DNA of 35,772 nucleotides from Gallionellaceae bacterium. GTDB taxonomy: Bacteria > Pseudomonadota > Gammaproteobacteria > Burkholderiales > Gallionellaceae. Positions within the stretch are counted from its first letter, which is position 1; every line of letters begins with the position of its first letter. The stretch covers positions 1 to 35,772 of the forward strand of contig DATFUZ010000066.1 in assembly GCA_035260545.1 (NCBI GenBank). The letters run 5' to 3'. Made by a program: the position numbers and the translations under genes. The notes below the pieces were generated by a model, which was not told the DNA's origin, did not search any database, and saw only the letters and a program-made list of their open reading frames with translations. Positions 2 through 15,231 of this stretch are shown piece by piece.

Positions 2-1372
2 ATCCTGAAACACGTTTCAATTCCAAGCGATGCATCCGGCGCGGAACTTATTCAGATACTGGAACAAGTTATCGGAAGTAACGAACAACAGCGAAAGAAC
101 CGAGAGAAACTCCAAAGAGAGCTTAGCCACGGAGTCGCGCCACTCCCATATGCTTGGCGCCCTCGCAATGTTCTCGACGGCATATCCGATTTGCCAATGT
201 TATGGGAAATCTCGAAGGTTTCATCGTGGGGTGCGCGCCATCTGCATTTGACGATGGCAACAAACGACTGGAAGCCGACGGATCTCCCCGCTATGCGGTG
301 CCGTGTTCCGCTGCTAGATTTACTGTCGTTGATGGTGATTTCCGATCTTGATTTGTTTCGTCCACTATTTGGGCTATTTCCGAAGATTGCAGTTGGCAAG
401 GCTACAATGACAGAATTGCAGCGGCTGCTGACGCCCTTATCGGGGACCCTGTATCGGAATAAGATTGCCGCTATTCAAGTAGCACTAAAGGAGCATTTTT
501 CGCAAATTGAACAGCCCGAGGCTTCGCAGCCATCGAACGACCGCTTCGTTAGTGACCAATGGGACTCGTTAGAACTCATCGAAATAGCGAAGAGCGGGAG
601 GTACCTGGTTTACTCTGATGACGTGCTATTTAGAATCTATTCGCAACAGCCGGGAATTTGTACTCTGGACTTGCTCTGCGCGCTAGACGACACAGGCGAA
701 TTCTCTGCAAGGGACGTCGCAATGAAGATAGCAACGCTCTGCTCGTGGCGCGTCGGGCTGTCGATCACACTACGCTATCAACTCGCGATATTACCGGACG
801 CGTTAGGCGGAGCAAAAAGCATCAAAGAAGGGATCAATGTATTGTCTGCTGACGAGCACTGCAATGCACTTTTCAGCGCAATCTGGAATATTGAAAAGCC
901 ATTTGGCGATCTGCAAGGCCACGCGGGGTTGATTCTCAGGAAACTCGCCGACGACAAGAACAATTCAATAAAGAGCGTCGCGGCCCTGGCAGGTTTCTGG
1001 CTCAGCAAAGCTAAGCTGCATAAACAAGCTCCAGCGCCGATTGATCGCATGGTAGCGCTTTTAATTGGGCAGGCAACCTTTATCGAGCACCCAGTCACGG
1101 CGGAGGCTGCACATCGACTGTGGAGCGTGTATACGGATCTTATCGAGGACATCCATGGCCACCATATGGATGACGAGAAACTTTGGCAGTCTATTCGCAT
1201 CTTAGGAGAGGTAGCGGCAGAAAGCGATAGGCATCACTCGCATAGTGGCGCTAGATCATTGGGGACAAGGCTCGCCAGCGGCTTAATAACAGGCACAAGC
1301 GATTATGAGTTATTTAGCAAGGCGTACAACAGCAAGCTCATTTCTTTAGCGGCGCAAGACAAGCGGAAATGA
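2..1372 (+). CDS. Hypothetical protein, 5'-partial. Its reading frame is open from the window edge. The first ATG is at 191 and the stop is at 1372.
   Basis: This is the frame of the ORF-track entry 191..1372. I read codons from position 2 to 190 and found no stop, so the gene probably starts upstream of the window. The region is roughly 50% GC against a backbone near 65%. I recognised no family motif. Confidence 0.5.
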   Translation: MLKHVSIPSDASGAELIQILEQVIGSNEQQRKNREKLQRELSHGVAPLPYAWRPRNVLDGISDLPMLWEISKVSSWGARHLHLTMATNDWKPTDLPAMRCRVPLLDLLSLMVISDLDLFRPLFGLFPKIAVGKATMTELQRLLTPLSGTLYRNKIAAIQVALKEHFSQIEQPEASQPSNDRFVSDQWDSLELIEIAKSGRYLVYSDDVLFRIYSQQPGICTLDLLCALDDTGEFSARDVAMKIATLCSWRVGLSITLRYQLAILPDALGGAKSIKEGINVLSADEHCNALFSAIWNIEKPFGDLQGHAGLILRKLADDKNNSIKSVAALAGFWLSKAKLHKQAPAPIDRMVALLIGQATFIEHPVTAEAAHRLWSVYTDLIEDIHGHHMDDEKLWQSIRILGEVAAESDRHHSHSGARSLGTRLASGLITGTSDYELFSKAYNSKLISLAAQDKRK

Positions 1373-1528
1373 CAGTATTGCGCGAAGCTCTCGACGCTCG
1401 ACTAGCCCAGGGTTTCAATTTTAATCAGCATATGTGGGGGCTTGTACATTATCATTGTAGCGGCCAAGCTCGCATTTTCTCTCGAGAGCAGAACTGCAAG
1501 TCGAGCCTAGCACCTTTAATTTGTTAAT

Positions 1529-1963
1529 TTAGCTGGCGGAGGCTATCAGAGCGAGAATGCCTAGAACCGCGAGAAATCCGGTCCACTCCCTTGTTTGCGA
1601 GCTCTCAGAGGCGCCGCCGGTGACCCGATTGGCAAAGGTCTCACAGTTGTTGTCCAGCAAGTGGTAACCCGTACGGCCGGATACTTCCTGCTCGATCCGT
1701 CGCAAGGTCGCATCGTGCTCAGACATCGGCACCTCGCGAACTTTCTTGACCGGTTTCCCTGCGGTAAACTGTTCATACGTCACATAGTGTGGCCCCTTGT
1801 CACTGGTACTATGGGCAACGGTTCCGTCGAGAAGATGCACGCCCCAATGCTCGCCAGGTCCCGATAGCTTTGGTCGCACGATGAGTGAAATGGCGGAAGA
1901 TTGCGGAAAAGTAAGCCAACTGTAGAGACTCATAAGATCACCTATTCGAGAGGAGCCAGACAA
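1529..1963 (-). CDS. LRAT/PLAAT-like (circularly permuted NlpC/P60 papain-fold) acyltransferase/phospholipase-type enzyme with a C-terminal transmembrane anchor
   Basis: The 144-aa product has His-containing segments GEHWGVH and GYHLL upstream of a C-terminal NCETFANRV motif. That matches the LRAT-family NCEHF catalytic Cys box. A hydrophobic tail WTGFLAVLGILALIASAS follows. This His...His...Cys order with a C-terminal transmembrane helix is the LRAT/HRASLS architecture. The gene overlaps the upstream XRE gene by 26 nt, which suggests a shared operon. Composition is low-GC. Confidence 0.6.
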   Translation of the reverse strand: MSGSSRIGDLMSLYSWLTFPQSSAISLIVRPKLSGPGEHWGVHLLDGTVAHSTSDKGPHYVTYEQFTAGKPVKKVREVPMSEHDATLRRIEQEVSGRTGYHLLDNNCETFANRVTGGASESSQTREWTGFLAVLGILALIASAS

Positions 1964-2201
1964 GTGCGGCTATTACGCCAGCACCTATCAGGAGGTTTTT
2001 AACTTCGGTTTTTGCCTGCTCTGCTTGCTGTTCAGCTTTCTGCTTGAAATGTTCCATCAGTGAAACCTGGTAAGCAGACGGCACCGCCACCCCACGCTCC
2101 CATTTACTGATCGTCATAACGTGAGCATCAAATAGCTGTGCGAAATCAGCTTGGGTCAAACCAAGCGATTTCCTTAATACGGCAATCTCAGATGGCGTCA
2201 T
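1938..2201 (-). CDS. XRE-family helix-turn-helix transcriptional regulator with a C-terminal transmembrane helix
   Basis: The product starts MTPSEIAVLRKSLGLTQADFAQLFDAHVMTISKWERGVAVPSAY, a classic HTH_XRE. A coiled/charged linker (QKAEQQAEQAKTE) and a hydrophobic helix LLIGAGVIAALVWLL follow. I chose the ATG at complement(2199..2201). The ORF track extends to a TTG at 2237. Confidence 0.65.
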   Translation of the reverse strand: MTPSEIAVLRKSLGLTQADFAQLFDAHVMTISKWERGVAVPSAYQVSLMEHFKQKAEQQAEQAKTEVKNLLIGAGVIAALVWLLSNR

Positions 2202-2235
2202 TACTAAGCCCTTAAGTATGTTTAAGCATAAGCTC

Positions 2236-2261
2236 AAACTTAGTCTAAGTTTAAACTTAGG
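2236..2261. promoter_or_regulatory. Operator-like palindrome AAACTTAG-T-CTAAGTTT followed by a third direct copy AAACTTAG, immediately upstream of the XRE gene
   Basis: The arms are 8 bp, perfect, with a 1-nt spacer (2236-2252). A direct repeat of the half-site lies at 2253-2260. The element sits 35-60 nt upstream of the XRE start. That position fits an autoregulatory operator. Confidence 0.35.
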
Positions 2262-2403
2262 TCGTTGTCAATAGGCCGAATACAAGAAAAATGTTCCACC
2301 TAATGAATTAACAACACCTGACGGCCAAAAGGTGGCGTCGTGCGGTTCGCAGCGAATGACCAGAATGCGCCGCACAAATCGACACGGTCCGGGTTCTATC
2401 CGC

Positions 2404-3996
<1,593 letters not shown>

Positions 3997-4323: not shown

Positions 4324-4397
4324 CACTGGATAGCTCAGTTCGGTAGAGCAATCGACTGTTAATCGATTAGTCGCGGGTTCGAATCCCGCTCCAAAAA
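4324..4397 (+). ncRNA. tRNA-Asn-like (GUU anticodon) non-coding RNA element. It has an intact D-arm, anticodon arm and T-arm, but a degenerate acceptor stem and no CCA. It is a Y-RNA-like tRNA mimic in the rtc leader.
   Basis: The D-arm is GCTC-AGTTCGGTA-GAGC. The anticodon stem ATCGA/TCGAT carries the loop CTGTTAA (4356-4362), with the GTT anticodon at 4358-4360. The T-arm is GCGGG-TTCGAAT-CCCGC. The would-be acceptor strands are CACTGGA and TCCAAAA, which pair for only 4 bp. The 3' side continues AACTG rather than CCA. The element is on the same strand as rtcB, about 160-175 nt downstream of the sigma-54 promoter. Confidence 0.6.
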
Positions 4398-4657
4398 CTG
4401 TCTTGAACAGGCAGCTTTTAAAAACGCAGTACCCGCCGGTTGTGGCATGCGCAAGCATCCACCGCCGGCCCGGCCCGGCGCCCGGACCGCGATTGCGGCA
4501 AGGCCATGCCGGCCCGCGGCAGCGATGTAAGCCCTCATGCTTCGGCACGTGGGCAAGCAGAGCCGCCGAGGGCTCGCGGAAGCCTCCCCGCAATCGCCGA
4601 ACGGGTTGCCCGCCGGGCCGGCGCCAGACCGGCACATTTACATAAGGAGAATGGAAC

Positions 4658-10547: not shown

Positions 10548-10790
10548 CGCCCTGTGCTTCCGGCGGCATGCCGTTCAAACGGCAAGGCCGGCGCGAGCCC
10601 AAGCCCAAGCCCCTCTCAAATCGGGCTGATTTCCGGGGGAGCCAGCCAGCCCATATGCCCTGCCAGAAATGGCGGGGCTTTTTTCTGGTGCATGGCCGCT
10701 TTGCGATGTTCCATTCGCTGAGTATCAGGCCGGCAGCGTGCCCGGAACGGACATGATGTTTGCAGATAAGCGGACCTTTTGTAGATTAAT

Positions 10791-10855
10791 GGGTGGAGCG
10801 TAGCGATACCCAACAGCTTATCCCCGAACTTGATGGGTATCGCTGCGCTCCACCC
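10791..10855. repeat. 22-bp inverted repeat (GGGTGGAGCGTAGCGATACCCA ... TGGGTATCGCTGCGCTCCACCC, 1 mismatch) with a 21-nt spacer. It is a large stem-loop at the boundary of the low-GC islet.
   Basis: I read the arms directly at 10791-10812 and 10834-10855. The element lies 25 nt downstream, on the minus strand, of the stop of the 391-aa gene. No U-tract follows on either strand. Confidence 0.5.
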
Positions 10856-10879
10856 ATCCCACGCTCGCTCATCTGCGCT

Positions 10880-12055
10880 TCAGTTTGAGCTAGGCTCAGC
10901 CTTTTTGGCCTTTGCCGCATAAGCCGGATCGAACGATGATATTGGCTTCAGCTTTAAGTCGAATGGCTCGTACTTGCCCTTGAACTGAGGCTCTCCCGGC
11001 AGGCGAGCGATGTCCCTCCAGTAGGTCGGCTCCGCCCTCGCCTCACTTTCCGTGCGAGATCTCCTAATGCATCTAGCAACGACTTGACGACACGTGTCGT
11101 CGAGCAGCAACATGTTCTTGTAGCCGCTCGCACACGCAGAGAGCAGTTGGAGCAGCGCAGTGAGCGCGGCTGTTGCAGCAGGCAAGTCTGGTTGAGACCC
11201 GCGGTGTATAAACTCATTGCGGGCTTTACGAGCAATGTTAAGCCATCGATACGTTTCCGCCTCGATGAACCCTTTCTGAAACATCATTTCGATACGGGCC
11301 GAGGTGGTCCAGACCCGATAGTCCTTGAGAAATGCGCTTCGATTGGGGATAGCATCGACCGACACCTTCGACTCGACTTCGACGCTCCACATTCGACTAA
11401 TTACCTGTTCTATTGAGGTCCAAAGACAAGTTAACGCTTCAGCCAGTGCGCCAGCGACATAGTGCGTTGTGCCAGCCAACGCTATTTCAGGACTAAAGGG
11501 TTCGCACTTATCCAGTATCGCGCGTCCGCGAGCGATGGCCTTTTTTAGGGCCGCAAGGGTGATTGGCGTATTATCGAGCAGTACGATGTTGTCGCTGATG
11601 CTGGCGCTGCGATCTCGGAGGGAAAAATGCAGCGCTGTTTTTCGGCTCGTGCCACCAAACATTCGTATGTAGCCGGTATTAAAGAGCCATCCCCTACAAA
11701 TATCAGAGGGTGCCGCCCCCTCTGTGTATACCCCGCCAAGAAGCATCTCGAGAAATACGCGATTGAAAAGTTTTAGGGCGGCATCCGGCTTTGAGAACTC
11801 CGGCAGCGCAGGCATAGCCAAGCTTCCATCGAAGCCGACCAGCATCATGTACGGCGCCACGTTGCCATCGATAAACCCACTTGCACGATTGAGTTTCAAG
11901 TAGTCGTAGGTCGACCGATTGATGTCCTGCAACGAAGGCTTCCAACTGTCGCGCCCGTCTTTCGCAATGAGCTTTAGTGGTCCACTTACGGCCATTACAA
12001 GAGGCACTCCATCGGGCATGGTCGGTTCGGTCATCGTTTGCATTGTCCTATTCAC
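10880..12055 (-). CDS. Hypothetical protein (391 aa) with a HEPN-like R-N-x3-H motif (…ARKARNEFIHRG…). It is a candidate Abi/HEPN-type RNase. The start codon is uncertain. It is a GTG at 12055, with in-frame ATGs at 12043 and 12034.
   Basis: The gene lies in a low-GC islet. I recognised no named family for the N-terminal half. The RNEFIH motif at residues 279-284 (nt 11204-11221) matches the HEPN Rx4-6H signature. The protein has no transmembrane segments. Confidence 0.55.
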   Translation of the reverse strand: MNRTMQTMTEPTMPDGVPLVMAVSGPLKLIAKDGRDSWKPSLQDINRSTYDYLKLNRASGFIDGNVAPYMMLVGFDGSLAMPALPEFSKPDAALKLFNRVFLEMLLGGVYTEGAAPSDICRGWLFNTGYIRMFGGTSRKTALHFSLRDRSASISDNIVLLDNTPITLAALKKAIARGRAILDKCEPFSPEIALAGTTHYVAGALAEALTCLWTSIEQVISRMWSVEVESKVSVDAIPNRSAFLKDYRVWTTSARIEMMFQKGFIEAETYRWLNIARKARNEFIHRGSQPDLPAATAALTALLQLLSACASGYKNMLLLDDTCRQVVARCIRRSRTESEARAEPTYWRDIARLPGEPQFKGKYEPFDLKLKPISSFDPAYAAKAKKAEPSSN

Positions 12056-12155
12056 TGTACGCTTTGGCTATCCTGATAACGCCGATCAGACGGATTTCAA
12101 TCCTGTTCCTCGAAACTACTGAGGCTTAACAGAGCTCGCGGGGCGCAATAAGCGT

Positions 12156-12243
12156 GCGTAGCCCGGATGCAGCGGAGCGGAATCCGGGTTGAGTCCGCAG
12201 GTTAACCCATCCCGGATTCAATTGCATTGCATCCGGGCTACGC
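12156..12243. repeat. Nested inverted-repeat element. An outer 16-bp perfect inverted repeat GCGTAGCCCGGATGCA/TGCATCCGGGCTACGC encloses an inner 9-bp inverted repeat GAATCCGGG/CCCGGATTC.
   Basis: The outer arms are at 12156-12171 and 12228-12243. The inner arms are at about 12180-12188 and 12211-12219. The element lies immediately 3', on the minus strand, of the 180-aa gene's stop at 12248. It is upstream of the 391-aa gene's promoter region. Confidence 0.5.
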
Positions 12244-12247
12244 TTGC

Positions 12248-12790
12248 TCAAAGGAGGGTTTTGCGTTTTCCCCGTTCCGGGTCGGTAAGCCAGAAAATAA
12301 GCACGGCCGCCAGCAAGGCCATGAGGGCGGCGGATTGCCCCCAAGCTACGCTCCCAAAATAGCGAAGGTATATGCCGGCAATAGCCAATACCACACCGAG
12401 CGCGCCGGCCGCCACGCGCAGCGCGGATGGCCACTGGCGTACCTGCGCCGGTAGCCGGGACGCAGGCCGCGGCTGGTCTATCTGCTCGCCGCTCTCGCAC
12501 GTCTCGCCGTCGTCTCCCTGCACCTTTGCTGCGAATTCGCGCGCCATGACCACCATCTTGTCGACGATCGCCTTGTCCGGGTTCTTGGTATAAATTTGCC
12601 CGTTTTTCCAGTCGAACCATGGCTCCGCATATTCGCACTTGCCGTGCCACATCGTGAAATATGGTCCTTGGTCCGGCAACAACTGTAGTTCTGAATCGCG
12701 TTCGACGTAGGCCAGCCATTCGGCGGCGGTGATCTCATTACCTTCGTCAATCCAGTGGTCGCGTCGAGTTATATGAAAATCGTAGCCCAC
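12248..12790 (-). CDS. Hypothetical membrane protein (180 aa). It has a ~110-aa N-terminal soluble domain and two C-terminal transmembrane helices.
   Basis: The GTG start at 12790 is preceded by the ribosome-binding site AGGAA with 5-nt spacing. The hydrophobic helices are ALRVAAGALGVVLAIAGIYL and SAALMALLAAVLIFWL. The gene is low-GC. I recognised no family. Confidence 0.55.
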   Translation of the reverse strand: MGYDFHITRRDHWIDEGNEITAAEWLAYVERDSELQLLPDQGPYFTMWHGKCEYAEPWFDWKNGQIYTKNPDKAIVDKMVVMAREFAAKVQGDDGETCESGEQIDQPRPASRLPAQVRQWPSALRVAAGALGVVLAIAGIYLRYFGSVAWGQSAALMALLAAVLIFWLTDPERGKRKTLL

Positions 12791-13345
12791 GTCTGTTCCT
12801 ATCGATTGAAATCGGTCTTCAAGGGCGATTCAAAGTCCGGCGCCCTTATAAAAGAAACAGCACGGCGGACGTCGGTTTATGGGACAACTCCGTCCTTCTG
12901 GATCGTCCGCTTGCGAGCAGTCTACTTGAGGGGGCAATCGGCTGCAATCGTGGAGCATTGGGGATCAGGCAGCGTTTTATTGAAGACCGTTGCGGGGTAT
13001 GGAATGCCAGGCGGCTTGCCGGGTGCTGCCGGCGAAATCGCTTTCGCGATGTGGATGTGCGCTTTCCCGACCGGCAAGGCACTTTCGGTAGCTTGCCCCT
13101 TCACAACACGATTTGAGAGGGGCTGGGCGCGAGCCGGCCTTGTTTTGATCCGGCCGGGCAGGCCTGCATTATCCTCCGGTGGCGCCGCCTGTCGCCCGGG
13201 CGCCGGCGCGCAAATGGTGCGATGGCGAACGTCGGGCATTCCGCCGCGATCGCATTGCAAACCCACTGTTTCGCCCCCATCTCCGGGCTATCTGCCCCCT
13301 TCCGCGGGGCGGAACTCGTGCTGCCTGCGGGCGCCCAAGCCGGGG

Positions 13346-13351
13346 TATAAT
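13346..13351 (+). promoter_or_regulatory. Candidate -10 box (GGTATAATT context) for the RNB exoribonuclease gene
   Basis: TATAAT lies 30 nt upstream of the start at 13381. Confidence 0.3.
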
Positions 13352-13380
13352 TCCGTATGGATTTCGGCGCAGTTTGGTAA

Positions 13381-15231
13381 ATGAATGTATTTTATGAAGA
13401 GGACGGGGGCTTCAAGGTCGGCACCGTCTTGACGGACAACACGACCTCGATGCACGTGGAAAGCCTGCACGGCAAGCGCAGCAAGATCAAGGCAGCCAAT
13501 GTGCTGTTGCGATTTACCCAGCCCGGCCTGAGCGAGTTCCTGGCTCAGGCGGAGGACGTTGCCGGCGGGATGGATGTGGAGTTTCTCTGGGAGTGCAGCC
13601 CGCCGGAGGAATTCGCCTTCGAAACGCTGGCGGCGGAGTATTTCGGCCACCCCCCCAGCCCGGCGGAGGCCGCGGGCGCGCTGATCCGACTGCATTCGGC
13701 CCCGATGTACTTCTACAAGAAGGGCAAGGGCCATTACAAGGCGGCGCCGCCGGATGCGCTCAAGGCAGCCCTGGCCGGTGCGGAGAGGAAGCGCTTGCTC
13801 GCGGAGCAGCAGGCGCAATTCACGGCGCAACTGTCGGACTTCACCCTGCCCGCGGAATTCGAGGGCAAGATACCGGAGCTGCTGTACAAGCCCGACCGCA
13901 ATACGATTGAAGTGAAGGCGCTTGAGGCGGCGTGCGCCGCGACCCATCTTTCGGCGGCGCACCTGCTGGAGCGCTGCGGGGCGATCCCGTCCAGCCACGA
14001 CTATCATTTGCAGCGCTTCCTGTTCGAGCATTTCCCGCGGGGCACGGGTTTTCCGCAGGTGAGCGTGGACATGCACCCGGAGCTGCCGCTGGCCGAGGCG
14101 CGCGCCTTCAGCATAGACGACGCGGCAACGACGGAAATCGACGATGCCTTCTCGGTGGTGCCGCTTCCCGGCGGCAACTGGCGCGTGGGCGTGCACATTG
14201 CGGCGCCCGCCTTGACCATCGCGCCCGGCTCGCCCGTGGACGAGATCGCGGGGCAACGGCTGTCCACCGTCTATATGCCGGGCAGCAAGATCACGATGCT
14301 GCCGGACAACGTGGTGCAGGCCTTCACCCTGAACGAGGATACGACCTGCCCGGCCGTGTCCATGTACCTGGAAGTGGATGCGGACACGCTGGAGATCAGG
14401 GGCACAGAAAGCCGCATCGAGCGCATCCACATCGCGAACAATCTGCGCCACGACACGCTGGAGCCGCTGTTCAACGAGGCGACACTCGCTGCGGGCAAAC
14501 GTGACTATCCCTACGCCGCCGAACTCGCGCTGCTGTGGAATCTCGCCGGCAAGCTGGAAGCGTTGCGCGGGAAATCCGCCGATAGCAACGCGCAGCAAAT
14601 GGATTATAATTTCCATGTTGAAGACGACCGCATCGCCATCAGCGAACGCAGGCGCGGCTCGCCGATAGACAAGGTGGTGAGCGAGCTGATGATCTTCGTC
14701 AACAGCGCGTGGGGCAAGCTGCTGGCCGAGCACAATGCAGCCGGGATTTACCGCACCCAGAACGGCGGCAAGGTCAAGATGAGCACGGTGCCCGGACCGC
14801 ATCAGGGGCTGGGCGTGGCGCAATATCTGTGGTCGAGTTCGCCGCTGCGGCGCTACGTGGATCTCATCAACCAGCGCCAGATCGCGGCCGTGCTGCGCGG
14901 GGAAACGCCGCCCTATGCGCCGAATGATCCGGCGATCTTCGCCGCGATGCGCGATTTCGACGCCGCTTATGCGGTCTACAACGAGTTCCAGCGCGGCATG
15001 GAGCGCTACTGGTGCCTGCGCTGGCTGCTGCAGGAGAACGTGAAGGAGGCCGAGGCCGTGGTGCAGCGCGAAAACCTGGTGAAGCTGGCGCGCATTCCGT
15101 TTTACGCACGCATTCCGTCCCTGCCGGAATCGCCGCCCAATACCCGCGTCATGCTGGAGATCGGCGACATCGACCTGCTGGACATGGAATTCAAGGCGCG
15201 ATACATCAATACCGTGGAGGCAACTGCTTGA
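13381..15231 (+). CDS. RNB-domain 3'-5' exoribonuclease (RNase II/R family)
   Basis: The RNB catalytic motif FSIDDAATTEIDDAFSV is present. The C-terminal signature YLWSSSPLRRYVDLINQRQ matches the RNase II/R SPIRRY region. The product is 616 aa. Confidence 0.85.
   Translation: MNVFYEEDGGFKVGTVLTDNTTSMHVESLHGKRSKIKAANVLLRFTQPGLSEFLAQAEDVAGGMDVEFLWECSPPEEFAFETLAAEYFGHPPSPAEAAGALIRLHSAPMYFYKKGKGHYKAAPPDALKAALAGAERKRLLAEQQAQFTAQLSDFTLPAEFEGKIPELLYKPDRNTIEVKALEAACAATHLSAAHLLERCGAIPSSHDYHLQRFLFEHFPRGTGFPQVSVDMHPELPLAEARAFSIDDAATTEIDDAFSVVPLPGGNWRVGVHIAAPALTIAPGSPVDEIAGQRLSTVYMPGSKITMLPDNVVQAFTLNEDTTCPAVSMYLEVDADTLEIRGTESRIERIHIANNLRHDTLEPLFNEATLAAGKRDYPYAAELALLWNLAGKLEALRGKSADSNAQQMDYNFHVEDDRIAISERRRGSPIDKVVSELMIFVNSAWGKLLAEHNAAGIYRTQNGGKVKMSTVPGPHQGLGVAQYLWSSSPLRRYVDLINQRQIAAVLRGETPPYAPNDPAIFAAMRDFDAAYAVYNEFQRGMERYWCLRWLLQENVKEAEAVVQRENLVKLARIPFYARIPSLPESPPNTRVMLEIGDIDLLDMEFKARYINTVEATA

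Follow-up and report, generated by a model that had tools for sequence, protein, structure and literature searches.

A putatively tail-anchored helix-turn-helix regulator paired with a PLAAT-like enzyme: a candidate two-gene conflict module in Gallionellaceae

Human PLAAT enzymes have roles in the degradation of organelle membranes, in the entry of picornaviruses and in pathogen restriction. In the toxin-antitoxin (TA) operons higBA and mqsRA, the toxin gene comes first. In ToxR, CadC and TcpP, which are winged-helix activators with periplasmic sensor domains, a single transmembrane helix keeps the DNA-binding domain at the inner membrane while the protein regulates a promoter. Among permuted NlpC/P60 enzymes, the toxins Tox-Act1 and TseH are proven phospholipases and are paired with a membrane-associated protective partner (PMC12994826). 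Here we analysed computationally a locus at positions 1529-2261 of a contig from a Gallionellaceae metagenome-assembled genome (DATFUZ010000066.1; the whole 35,772-nt stretch analysed is called the window). The locus encodes a helix-turn-helix (HTH) protein with a C-terminal hydrophobic, putatively transmembrane (TM) helix, hereafter HTH-TM, followed by an LRAT/PLAAT-like enzyme with a hydrophobic tail, hereafter LRAT-TM. With barely better than even confidence, we read this pair as a self-contained, horizontally mobile, autorepressed two-gene conflict module of the TA or abortive-infection kind, with a lipid-targeting effector.

Architecture and control region of the pair

Two co-directional open reading frames (ORFs) were listed on the minus strand at 1938-2237 and 1529-1963, in agreement with the two-gene module that the initial annotation had placed at 1529-2261. 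Alignment with homologues moved both likely starts inwards: the regulator gene would start at ATG 2201 and encode 87 aa rather than 99, and the enzyme gene would start at ATG 1933 and encode 134 aa rather than 144. These two ATGs were adopted because all homologues begin there, and the TTG starts at 1963 and 2237 were dropped. TTG 1963 was rejected for the enzyme because a Shine-Dalgarno sequence precedes 1933, and TTG 2237 was discarded for the regulator by its position inside the operator and promoter. The 26-nt gene overlap described earlier was not borne out, since the corrected starts leave a 4-nt gap. The features of the locus are as follows.

2242-2271, minus strand: sigma-70-type promoter, with -35 TTGACA (2271-2266), an 18-nt spacer and -10 TAGACT (2247-2242)
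2246-2259, no strand assigned: operator O1, a perfect palindrome (TAAGTTTAAACTTA) within the -35/-10 spacer
2229-2242, no strand assigned: operator O2, TAAGTTTGAGCTTA on the gene strand, over the end of the -10 and the +1 region
1938-2201, minus strand: gene of the predicted HTH-TM repressor, 87 aa, stop included, with an XRE HTH, a stalk helix and a hydrophobic helix
1947-1994, minus strand: C-terminal hydrophobic helix of the regulator, residues 70-85, LLIGAGVIAALVWLLS, then N-R (Kyte-Doolittle)
1938-1943, minus strand: Shine-Dalgarno sequence AGGTGA of the enzyme gene, containing the TGA stop of the regulator (direct reading of the sequence)
1529-1933, minus strand: gene of the LRAT/PLAAT-like, putatively tail-anchored enzyme, 134 aa, stop included (Pfam, motif order and fold search)
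1532-1585, minus strand: hydrophobic anchor at the C-terminus of the enzyme, WTGFLAVLGILALIASAS (residues 117-134), the last residues of the protein

On the gene strand the junction reads ...AAT AGG TGA TCTT ATG, with 4 nt (TCTT) between the genes. A Shine-Dalgarno sequence lying over the regulator stop, together with the 4-nt gap, would fit translational coupling of the enzyme to the regulator.

The promoter matched the consensus at 10 of 12 positions, and O2 was placed 17 nt from O1. The AAACTTAG/CTAAGTTT repeats, first taken for a triple-repeat operator, are present at 2237-2261, but the unit proved to be two 14-bp palindromes of the form TAAGY-N4-RCTTA. This motif occurred twice in the window against 0.04 expected, and none of 100 shuffles reached two. 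To this we added homologous loci, 76 of which were obtained by scanning metagenomes and one genome per species; these scans were motif-based, and the sampling is biased towards close relatives. The placing of a palindromic operator before the genes was found to be conserved across the homologous loci: of 29 unique loci, 22 had the motif at most 150 nt upstream of the HTH gene, and 0 of 26 motif matches fell elsewhere in 231 kb. The TTGACA box, its distance to the operator and further RCTTA half-sites were also conserved. These results provide strong comparative evidence for a predicted autoregulatory operator.

The putatively tail-anchored enzyme and its regulator

The enzyme belongs to the LRAT/PLAAT family, as had been proposed from its motifs, and the placement held in a Pfam profile, a sequence search against solved structures and a fold search. 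The Pfam LRAT profile PF04970 scored 35 bits (gathering threshold 24.3), and the same profile is precomputed for nearly all homologues of the enzyme. A profile built from 11 homologues returned PLAAT3, HRASLS2 and related chains as its only meaningful solved relatives (E 3.5e-4). The AlphaFold2 model (predicted local distance difference test, pLDDT, 80.5) has a papain-like alpha+beta fold superposable on PLAAT structures, and the top five Foldseek matches were all HRASLS2/PLAAT3 (probability 1.0; template modelling score normalised to the target, TMt, 0.62-0.70).

The hallmark permuted order noted in the initial annotation was confirmed as H29, H41 and the C97 of NNCETF, whose codons lie at 1847-1849, 1811-1813 and 1643-1645. 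In the alignment, these residues correspond to H23, H35 and C113 of PLAAT3, with the enzyme segment GEHWGV...VAH over H23...H35 and NNCETF over the NCEHF helix that carries Cys113. Among 28 paired homologues, R20, H29, G31, F56, Y90, N96, C97, E98 and S111 were invariant, and H41 was kept in 93%, with Asp in two. An exhaustive profile search collected 1375 cluster representatives at E<=1e-3, of which 248 also passed E<=1e-10. Almost all have lengths of 120-135 aa and an alignment that extends through to the C-terminal tail.

C-terminal anchors had been claimed for both proteins, and hydrophobic stretches were indeed present in both; their transmembrane status rests on hydropathy. The uncharged enzyme tail WTGFLAVLGILALIASAS has a Kyte-Doolittle mean of 2.08 over 17 residues and is covered by a helix predicted at residues 112-132 in the AlphaFold2 model. 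All 28 enzyme homologues carry a hydrophobic tail with 0-4 trailing residues, at low sequence conservation (0.25-0.57). Given a C-terminal anchor and no signal peptide, the catalytic domain is expected on the cytoplasmic side, which would exclude peptidoglycan as a substrate. The most likely target is thus predicted to be phospholipids of the inner leaflet, and such chemistry is plausible because the phospholipase toxicity of Tox-Act1 and TseH is proven (PMC12994826).

The upstream partner is an XRE HTH protein with a C-terminal hydrophobic helix, as annotated at first (HTH_3, 31.1 bits; gathering 23). Profile searches of the Protein Data Bank matched the antitoxins HigA-2 and MqsA (E about 3e-6), and Foldseek returned the C-terminal domains of HigA2 and MqsA (TMt 0.76-0.81), as well as P22 c2 and other repressors. 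The TIGR03830 MqsA profile scored 51 bits against a cutoff of 61.8, with only positions 65-122 of 127 matched, and PF15731 scored 27 against a threshold of 30. The HTH begins at residue 3, and there is no N-terminal CxxC...CxxC domain. Membership of the MqsA family was rejected on the sub-cutoff score and the missing N-terminal zinc ribbon, which leaves the regulator outside that family as an XRE HTH protein of HigA2/MqsA type.

The AlphaFold2 model of the regulator (pLDDT 90.3) shows three short helices followed by one unbroken helix at residues 43-85, which runs from the last HTH helix through a charged stalk into the hydrophobic stretch LLIGAGVIAALVWLLS (Kyte-Doolittle mean 2.11 over 17 residues). 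The hydrophobic part carries the nearly invariant small-residue motif GAGV[IV]AAL, and conservation over 28-31 homologues was 0.89-1.00 at L70, L71, G73, A74, G75, V76, A78, A79, L80, W82, L83 and L84. Because this tail is nearly invariant while the enzyme anchor varies, it probably does something sequence-specific. The simplest idea is that the regulator self-associates through the small-residue face of the helix, there being no other dimerisation element in its 87 aa.

Conservation, genomic contexts and other partners

The gene pair had been proposed as a unit conserved elsewhere, and it recurred in many unrelated contexts. A hidden Markov model (HMM) scan found 29 unique HTH-TM plus LRAT-TM pairs, always with the HTH gene first and with gaps of -28 to +15 nt, and every one of the 29 unique HTH-TM genes found then was followed by an LRAT-TM gene. 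Four of four more distant HTH-TM homologues that were looked up precede a gene of 117-138 aa, which the HMM scan confirmed as LRAT-TM. The pairwise identities of the partners were correlated (r = 0.80; Mantel 0/5000), with a mean identity of 62% for HTH-TM against 41% for the enzyme. The hosts include Gallionellaceae, Sideroxydans, Aquabacterium lacunae, Undibacterium, Comamonadaceae and Steroidobacter, and the pair is spread over Beta- and Gammaproteobacteria.

Neighbours differed at every locus and were often defence or mobility genes. They included a retron-type reverse transcriptase (PADLOC 6e-131), a Dam methylase with PDDEXK and an OLD-family protein; GajA of Gabija (5.6e-248) with a UvrD-family helicase and PLDc_2; an integrase together with SLFN_AlbA_2 and a UvrD/M78 protein; BilB/BilD-like genes and an HTH plus Peptidase_M78; Fic, a PycTIR-like TIR effector (7e-93) and transposases; and NERD at one locus. 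Another pair lies downstream of rpoD. The module itself matches no catalogued defence system (PADLOC-DB v2): the regulator gave generic HTH matches only (RmrA N-terminus, 1.2e-6). The pairing was first judged undescribed, and this stands, with no match in PADLOC and no description found in the literature. Searches of plasmids by tblastn gave no match to the HTH-TM protein and one distant LRAT gene, on Vibrio anguillarum p15, with a divergent HTH gene.

On that plasmid (NZ_CP023056.1, 13791-14773), the LRAT gene (31% identity) is divergent from the gene of a 130-aa HTH regulator and stands beside annotated restriction-modification genes, a type I hsdR and a restriction endonuclease. The HTH plus LRAT theme recurs there in a different arrangement.

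LRAT-TM genes without an HTH-TM partner were found in other recurrent arrangements. At loci L046 and L084-L087 (in L084, 3-857 and 894-1277), the gene of a 127-aa LRAT-TM protein follows, 37 nt downstream, that of an oligonucleotide cyclase of the type found in the cyclic oligonucleotide-based antiphage signalling system (CBASS). That cyclase matched PADLOC Cyclase PDLC00772 (E 1.4e-99) and is cut by the contig end, and the LRAT-TM gene adjoins a YhaV/PrlF toxin-antitoxin pair. The arrangement would amount to a CBASS-like operon whose effector is of an uncatalogued type and lacks any obvious nucleotide-sensing domain. In a second arrangement, LRAT-TM (126-143 aa) directly follows a 750-780-aa Prok-E2_A + ThiF + Prok-JAB fusion (E2-E1-JAB), and in a third, a near-identical element of Comamonadaceae type, a 416-aa HTH + Peptidase_M78 protein (ImmA/IrrE-like) and a 52-aa Ser/Lys-rich ORF are followed by a 122-aa LRAT-TM gene. 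The enzyme here has a third type of partner, the HTH-Peptidase_M78 protein. The loci are as follows.

L011 1580-4360; L038; L047/L048 1688-4372; L090 1540-5381: E2-E1-JAB fusion with LRAT-TM
L012-L016, L020, L041-L045, L049-L051, L056 (e.g. L013 1977-4372): HTH-Peptidase_M78 protein with LRAT-TM

The E2-E1-JAB fusions are preceded by a gene for a 382-403-aa protein with weak PADLOC LmuA/RTasMBL matches, and the L090 operon has BrxR/WYL regulators and an integrase on its flanks. The operon looks like a conjugation-type conflict system with LRAT-TM as its terminal gene. As a candidate cyclase, the 382-403-aa protein was set aside (BLASTP against the L046 cyclase, E 0.72), and a sequence search of the Protein Data Bank found nothing for it. 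In both the cyclase and the E2-E1-JAB operons, LRAT-TM occupies the position where such systems normally carry a killing effector, which lends independent support to an effector role.

The surroundings of the window's own pair were examined as well. The GC content is 0.44-0.55 over 1-2300 against 0.60-0.69 beyond, and the drop that led the pair to be described as lying in a low-GC patch is therefore real; the islet is nevertheless bigger than the pair and includes the 3' end of a DUF4365 gene. The adjoining RNA-repair locus was correctly recognised, with RtcR, RtcB and RtcA next door in the order rtcR / tRNA-Asn / Band_7 / rtcB / RlaP / rtcA. The tRNA-Asn(GTT), at 4324-4398 on the plus strand (ARAGORN; Rfam 58.5 bits), is intergenic between rtcR (2404-3996, minus strand) and the Band_7/SPFH - rtcB - RlaP - rtcA operon, an unusual composition and position for an Rtc locus. 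Use of a tRNA as the integration site of the islet was ruled out, as the single tRNA (Asn, 4324-4398) is parted from the islet by rtcR. The DUF4365 sequence at 191-1372 (plus strand) is the end of a gene for a 1319-aa protein, seen in full at 10562-14521 (minus strand) of locus L001. This protein has an N-terminal DUF4365 domain (1.1e-12), a sub-threshold PIN domain of PIN-TPR-GreABC type (3.6e-5) and no PADLOC match, and it could be an uncharacterised conflict protein. A 52-aa ORF at 1369-1527 (plus strand) overlaps the DUF4365 gene stop (ATGA), and its own end lies 2 nt short of the convergent enzyme stop; with no Pfam match and no call in the public record, it is probably not a gene.

Role of the pair and comparison with known systems

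The conflict-module reading, a toxin/immunity or abortive-infection role, had been suggested at the outset. As an interpretation it is strengthened, because the HTH is of antitoxin type, the contexts include defence islands, and sister genes stand behind the cyclase and E2-E1-JAB genes. A tail-anchored HTH-TM dimer, probably held together by the invariant GAGVxAAL membrane helix, would bind O1 and O2 over the -10/+1 of its own promoter and keep the bicistronic operon nearly silent. The translationally coupled second gene would yield a tail-anchored Cys-His-His acyl enzyme at the cytoplasmic leaflet of the inner membrane. If repression or neutralisation were lost, possibly through proteolysis, membrane perturbation or loss of the element, the enzyme could accumulate and cleave or transacylate inner-membrane phospholipids, and the resulting membrane damage might end in growth arrest, death, abortive infection or post-segregational killing. 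In this scheme we infer the substrate, the toxicity, the trigger, the role in phage defence and any neutralisation by HTH-TM at the protein level.

Several observations weigh against this reading. Some pairs stand in contexts without obvious defence genes (e.g. L005, after rpoD, and L079), no PADLOC family matched the enzyme or its sister-clade members, and neither phage tblastn nor a viral-contig scan found relatives. The membrane-spanning status of the regulator is assigned by hydropathy to a tail of 15-16 residues. Of the two partners HTH-TM is the better conserved, whereas typical antitoxin/toxin pairs show the opposite. Some LRAT-TM homologues stand alone or with other partners, and the enzyme may therefore not be intrinsically lethal. 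Finally, the regulator helix is nearly invariant and the enzyme anchor variable, and the two anchors do not co-vary; this contrast argues against a co-evolving TM-TM neutralising interface and for mainly transcriptional control. We accordingly lean towards control that would be mainly transcriptional and possibly gated by the state of the membrane.

An alternative that we regard as unlikely is a membrane-lipid homeostasis or envelope-stress module, in which the tethered repressor senses the bilayer and induces a benign acyltransferase when needed, for example for N-acyl-phosphatidylethanolamine formation or lysophospholipid re-acylation as in PLAAT/LRAT. LRAT/PLAAT enzymes are acyltransferases as well as phospholipases, and the bacterial LnsA, a constructive LRAT-like N-acyltransferase (PMC13559823), counts for this alternative. 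An invariant membrane helix would suit a lipid or bilayer sensor, the higher conservation of the HTH and the solitary LRAT-TM genes fit as well, and a fatty-acid desaturase adjoins one locus. Against these points stand the patchy, horizontal distribution of the pair, with the window's copy in a low-GC islet, the shifting neighbours that are often defence or mobility genes, the antitoxin-type HTH, the sister genes behind CBASS cyclase and E2-E1-JAB fusions, and the lack of conserved lipid-biosynthesis genes nearby.

Somewhat less likely still, in our view, is a classical type II TA addiction module with the sole role of stabilising the mobile island, with HTH-TM binding LRAT-TM in the membrane and no part in phage defence. 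It overlaps the conflict-module reading and differs from it in biological role only. The antitoxin-type HTH, tight coupling, palindromic operator, co-inheritance of both genes and location in mobile, low-GC DNA all suit it, but the antitoxin is more conserved than the toxin, the anchors show no co-variation, the system is nearly absent from plasmids (one distant, differently arranged match), and its repeated placement in defence islands suggests more than addiction.

Very unlikely is a peptidase or deconjugating enzyme (isopeptidase/thioesterase) of the PPPDE/DeSI kind, acting on a membrane-proximal protein rather than on lipids, with HTH-TM as its regulator or even its substrate. A weak Peptidase_C97/PPPDE match (1.4e-4, 22 bits), a sister clade directly after Prok-E2_A+ThiF+JAB conjugation enzymes and one pair adjoining Bil genes speak for it. 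Against it, that match is below its gathering threshold (29.2) whereas the LRAT match exceeds its own, PLAAT2/3/4 gave the best matches in sequence and in fold, the NCE[TI]F motif and tail-anchor architecture belong to the lipid-acting LRAT/PLAAT branch, and acyl chains are the target of the permuted NlpC/P60 members tested to date (PMC12994826).

If the conflict-module reading is correct, a self-directed phospholipid-degrading effector would add a new class of toxin to those of TA-like or abortive-infection modules, and HTH-TM would be, as far as our searches reach, the first tail-anchored HTH repressor or antitoxin. The system is compact (about 740 bp, two proteins of 87 and 134 aa), and it could show how a membrane-tethered repressor works on DNA and whether membrane state gates transcription directly. 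How human PLAAT enzymes are activated is poorly understood, and the system could also serve as a bacterial model for this. The reuse of LRAT-TM behind a CBASS-type cyclase and E2-E1-JAB would point to a reusable membrane-killing effector missing from defence catalogues; this reuse, the tail-anchored repressor and the PLAAT-like effector are what specialists may find surprising. A broader proposal, tentative and on the doubtful side, is that tail-anchored PLAAT-type enzymes are widespread, uncatalogued bacterial immune or conflict effectors under at least three control modules and that, with the same catalytic core and C-terminal anchor, they are a possible evolutionary source of eukaryotic PLAAT/H-REV107 and picornaviral 2A H-box/NC proteins. 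The three modules may be a HigA2/MqsA-like tethered repressor that reports membrane state, CBASS-type cyclases and E2-E1-JAB conjugation operons. Were the immune-effector origin of PLAAT true, it would add another lineage leading from bacterial immunity to eukaryotes.

Among described systems, ToxR, CadC and TcpP resemble the regulator in its predicted membrane tether but differ from it otherwise, as it is a predicted XRE repressor of 87 aa with only 2-5 residues past the hydrophobic helix. CBASS membrane effectors such as the patatin phospholipase CapV resemble the module as a presumed phospholipid-degrading, membrane-targeted killing module. Unlike CBASS, the window's module would be controlled by an HTH-TM repressor, its LRAT-TM proteins (127-134 aa) have no recognisable nucleotide-sensing domain, and no cyclase lies within 10 kb of the pair, a cyclase being found only beside a sister LRAT-TM gene. 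The T6SS (type VI secretion system) toxins Tox-Act1 and TseH are likewise permuted NlpC/P60 Cys-His enzymes, and theirs is a cleavage of phosphatidylethanolamine and phosphatidylglycerol; their pairing with a membrane-associated partner is a further resemblance. Those toxins are secreted, periplasmic and linked to T6SS or the type V secretion system, whereas the enzyme is a protein of 134 aa, predicted to be tail-anchored and to face the cytoplasm, in the LRAT clade rather than the Tox-Act1/TseH/DUF4105 clades, and no secretion genes were found within 10 kb of the window's pair.

Type II TA systems with HigA2/MqsA antitoxins have the closest HTH, two small coupled genes and promoter-overlapping palindromes, and as in such systems the genes here are small, adjacent, coupled and conserved as a pair. 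Unlike those antitoxins, the regulator lacks an N-terminal toxin-binding or zinc-ribbon domain and has a stalk helix and hydrophobic tail. In contrast to higBA and mqsRA, the operon opens with the HTH gene; the partner protein is a papain-fold, putatively lipid-acting enzyme and not an RNase, and the HTH is more conserved than the putative toxin. Compared with eukaryotic PLAAT/HRASLS proteins (PLAAT1-5, LRAT), the enzyme is only about 20% identical, bacterial and operon-encoded downstream of a dedicated repressor, lies in mobile or defence contexts rather than lipid-metabolism contexts, and has a predicted activity. It nevertheless has the same permuted NlpC/P60 fold and His-His-Cys order, with equal His-His spacing (H29/H41 in the enzyme, H23/H35 in PLAAT3), and both share the NCE[HT]F motif and a length of about 130-160 aa; the C-terminal anchor and cytosol-facing catalytic domain of PLAAT are predicted for the enzyme as well.

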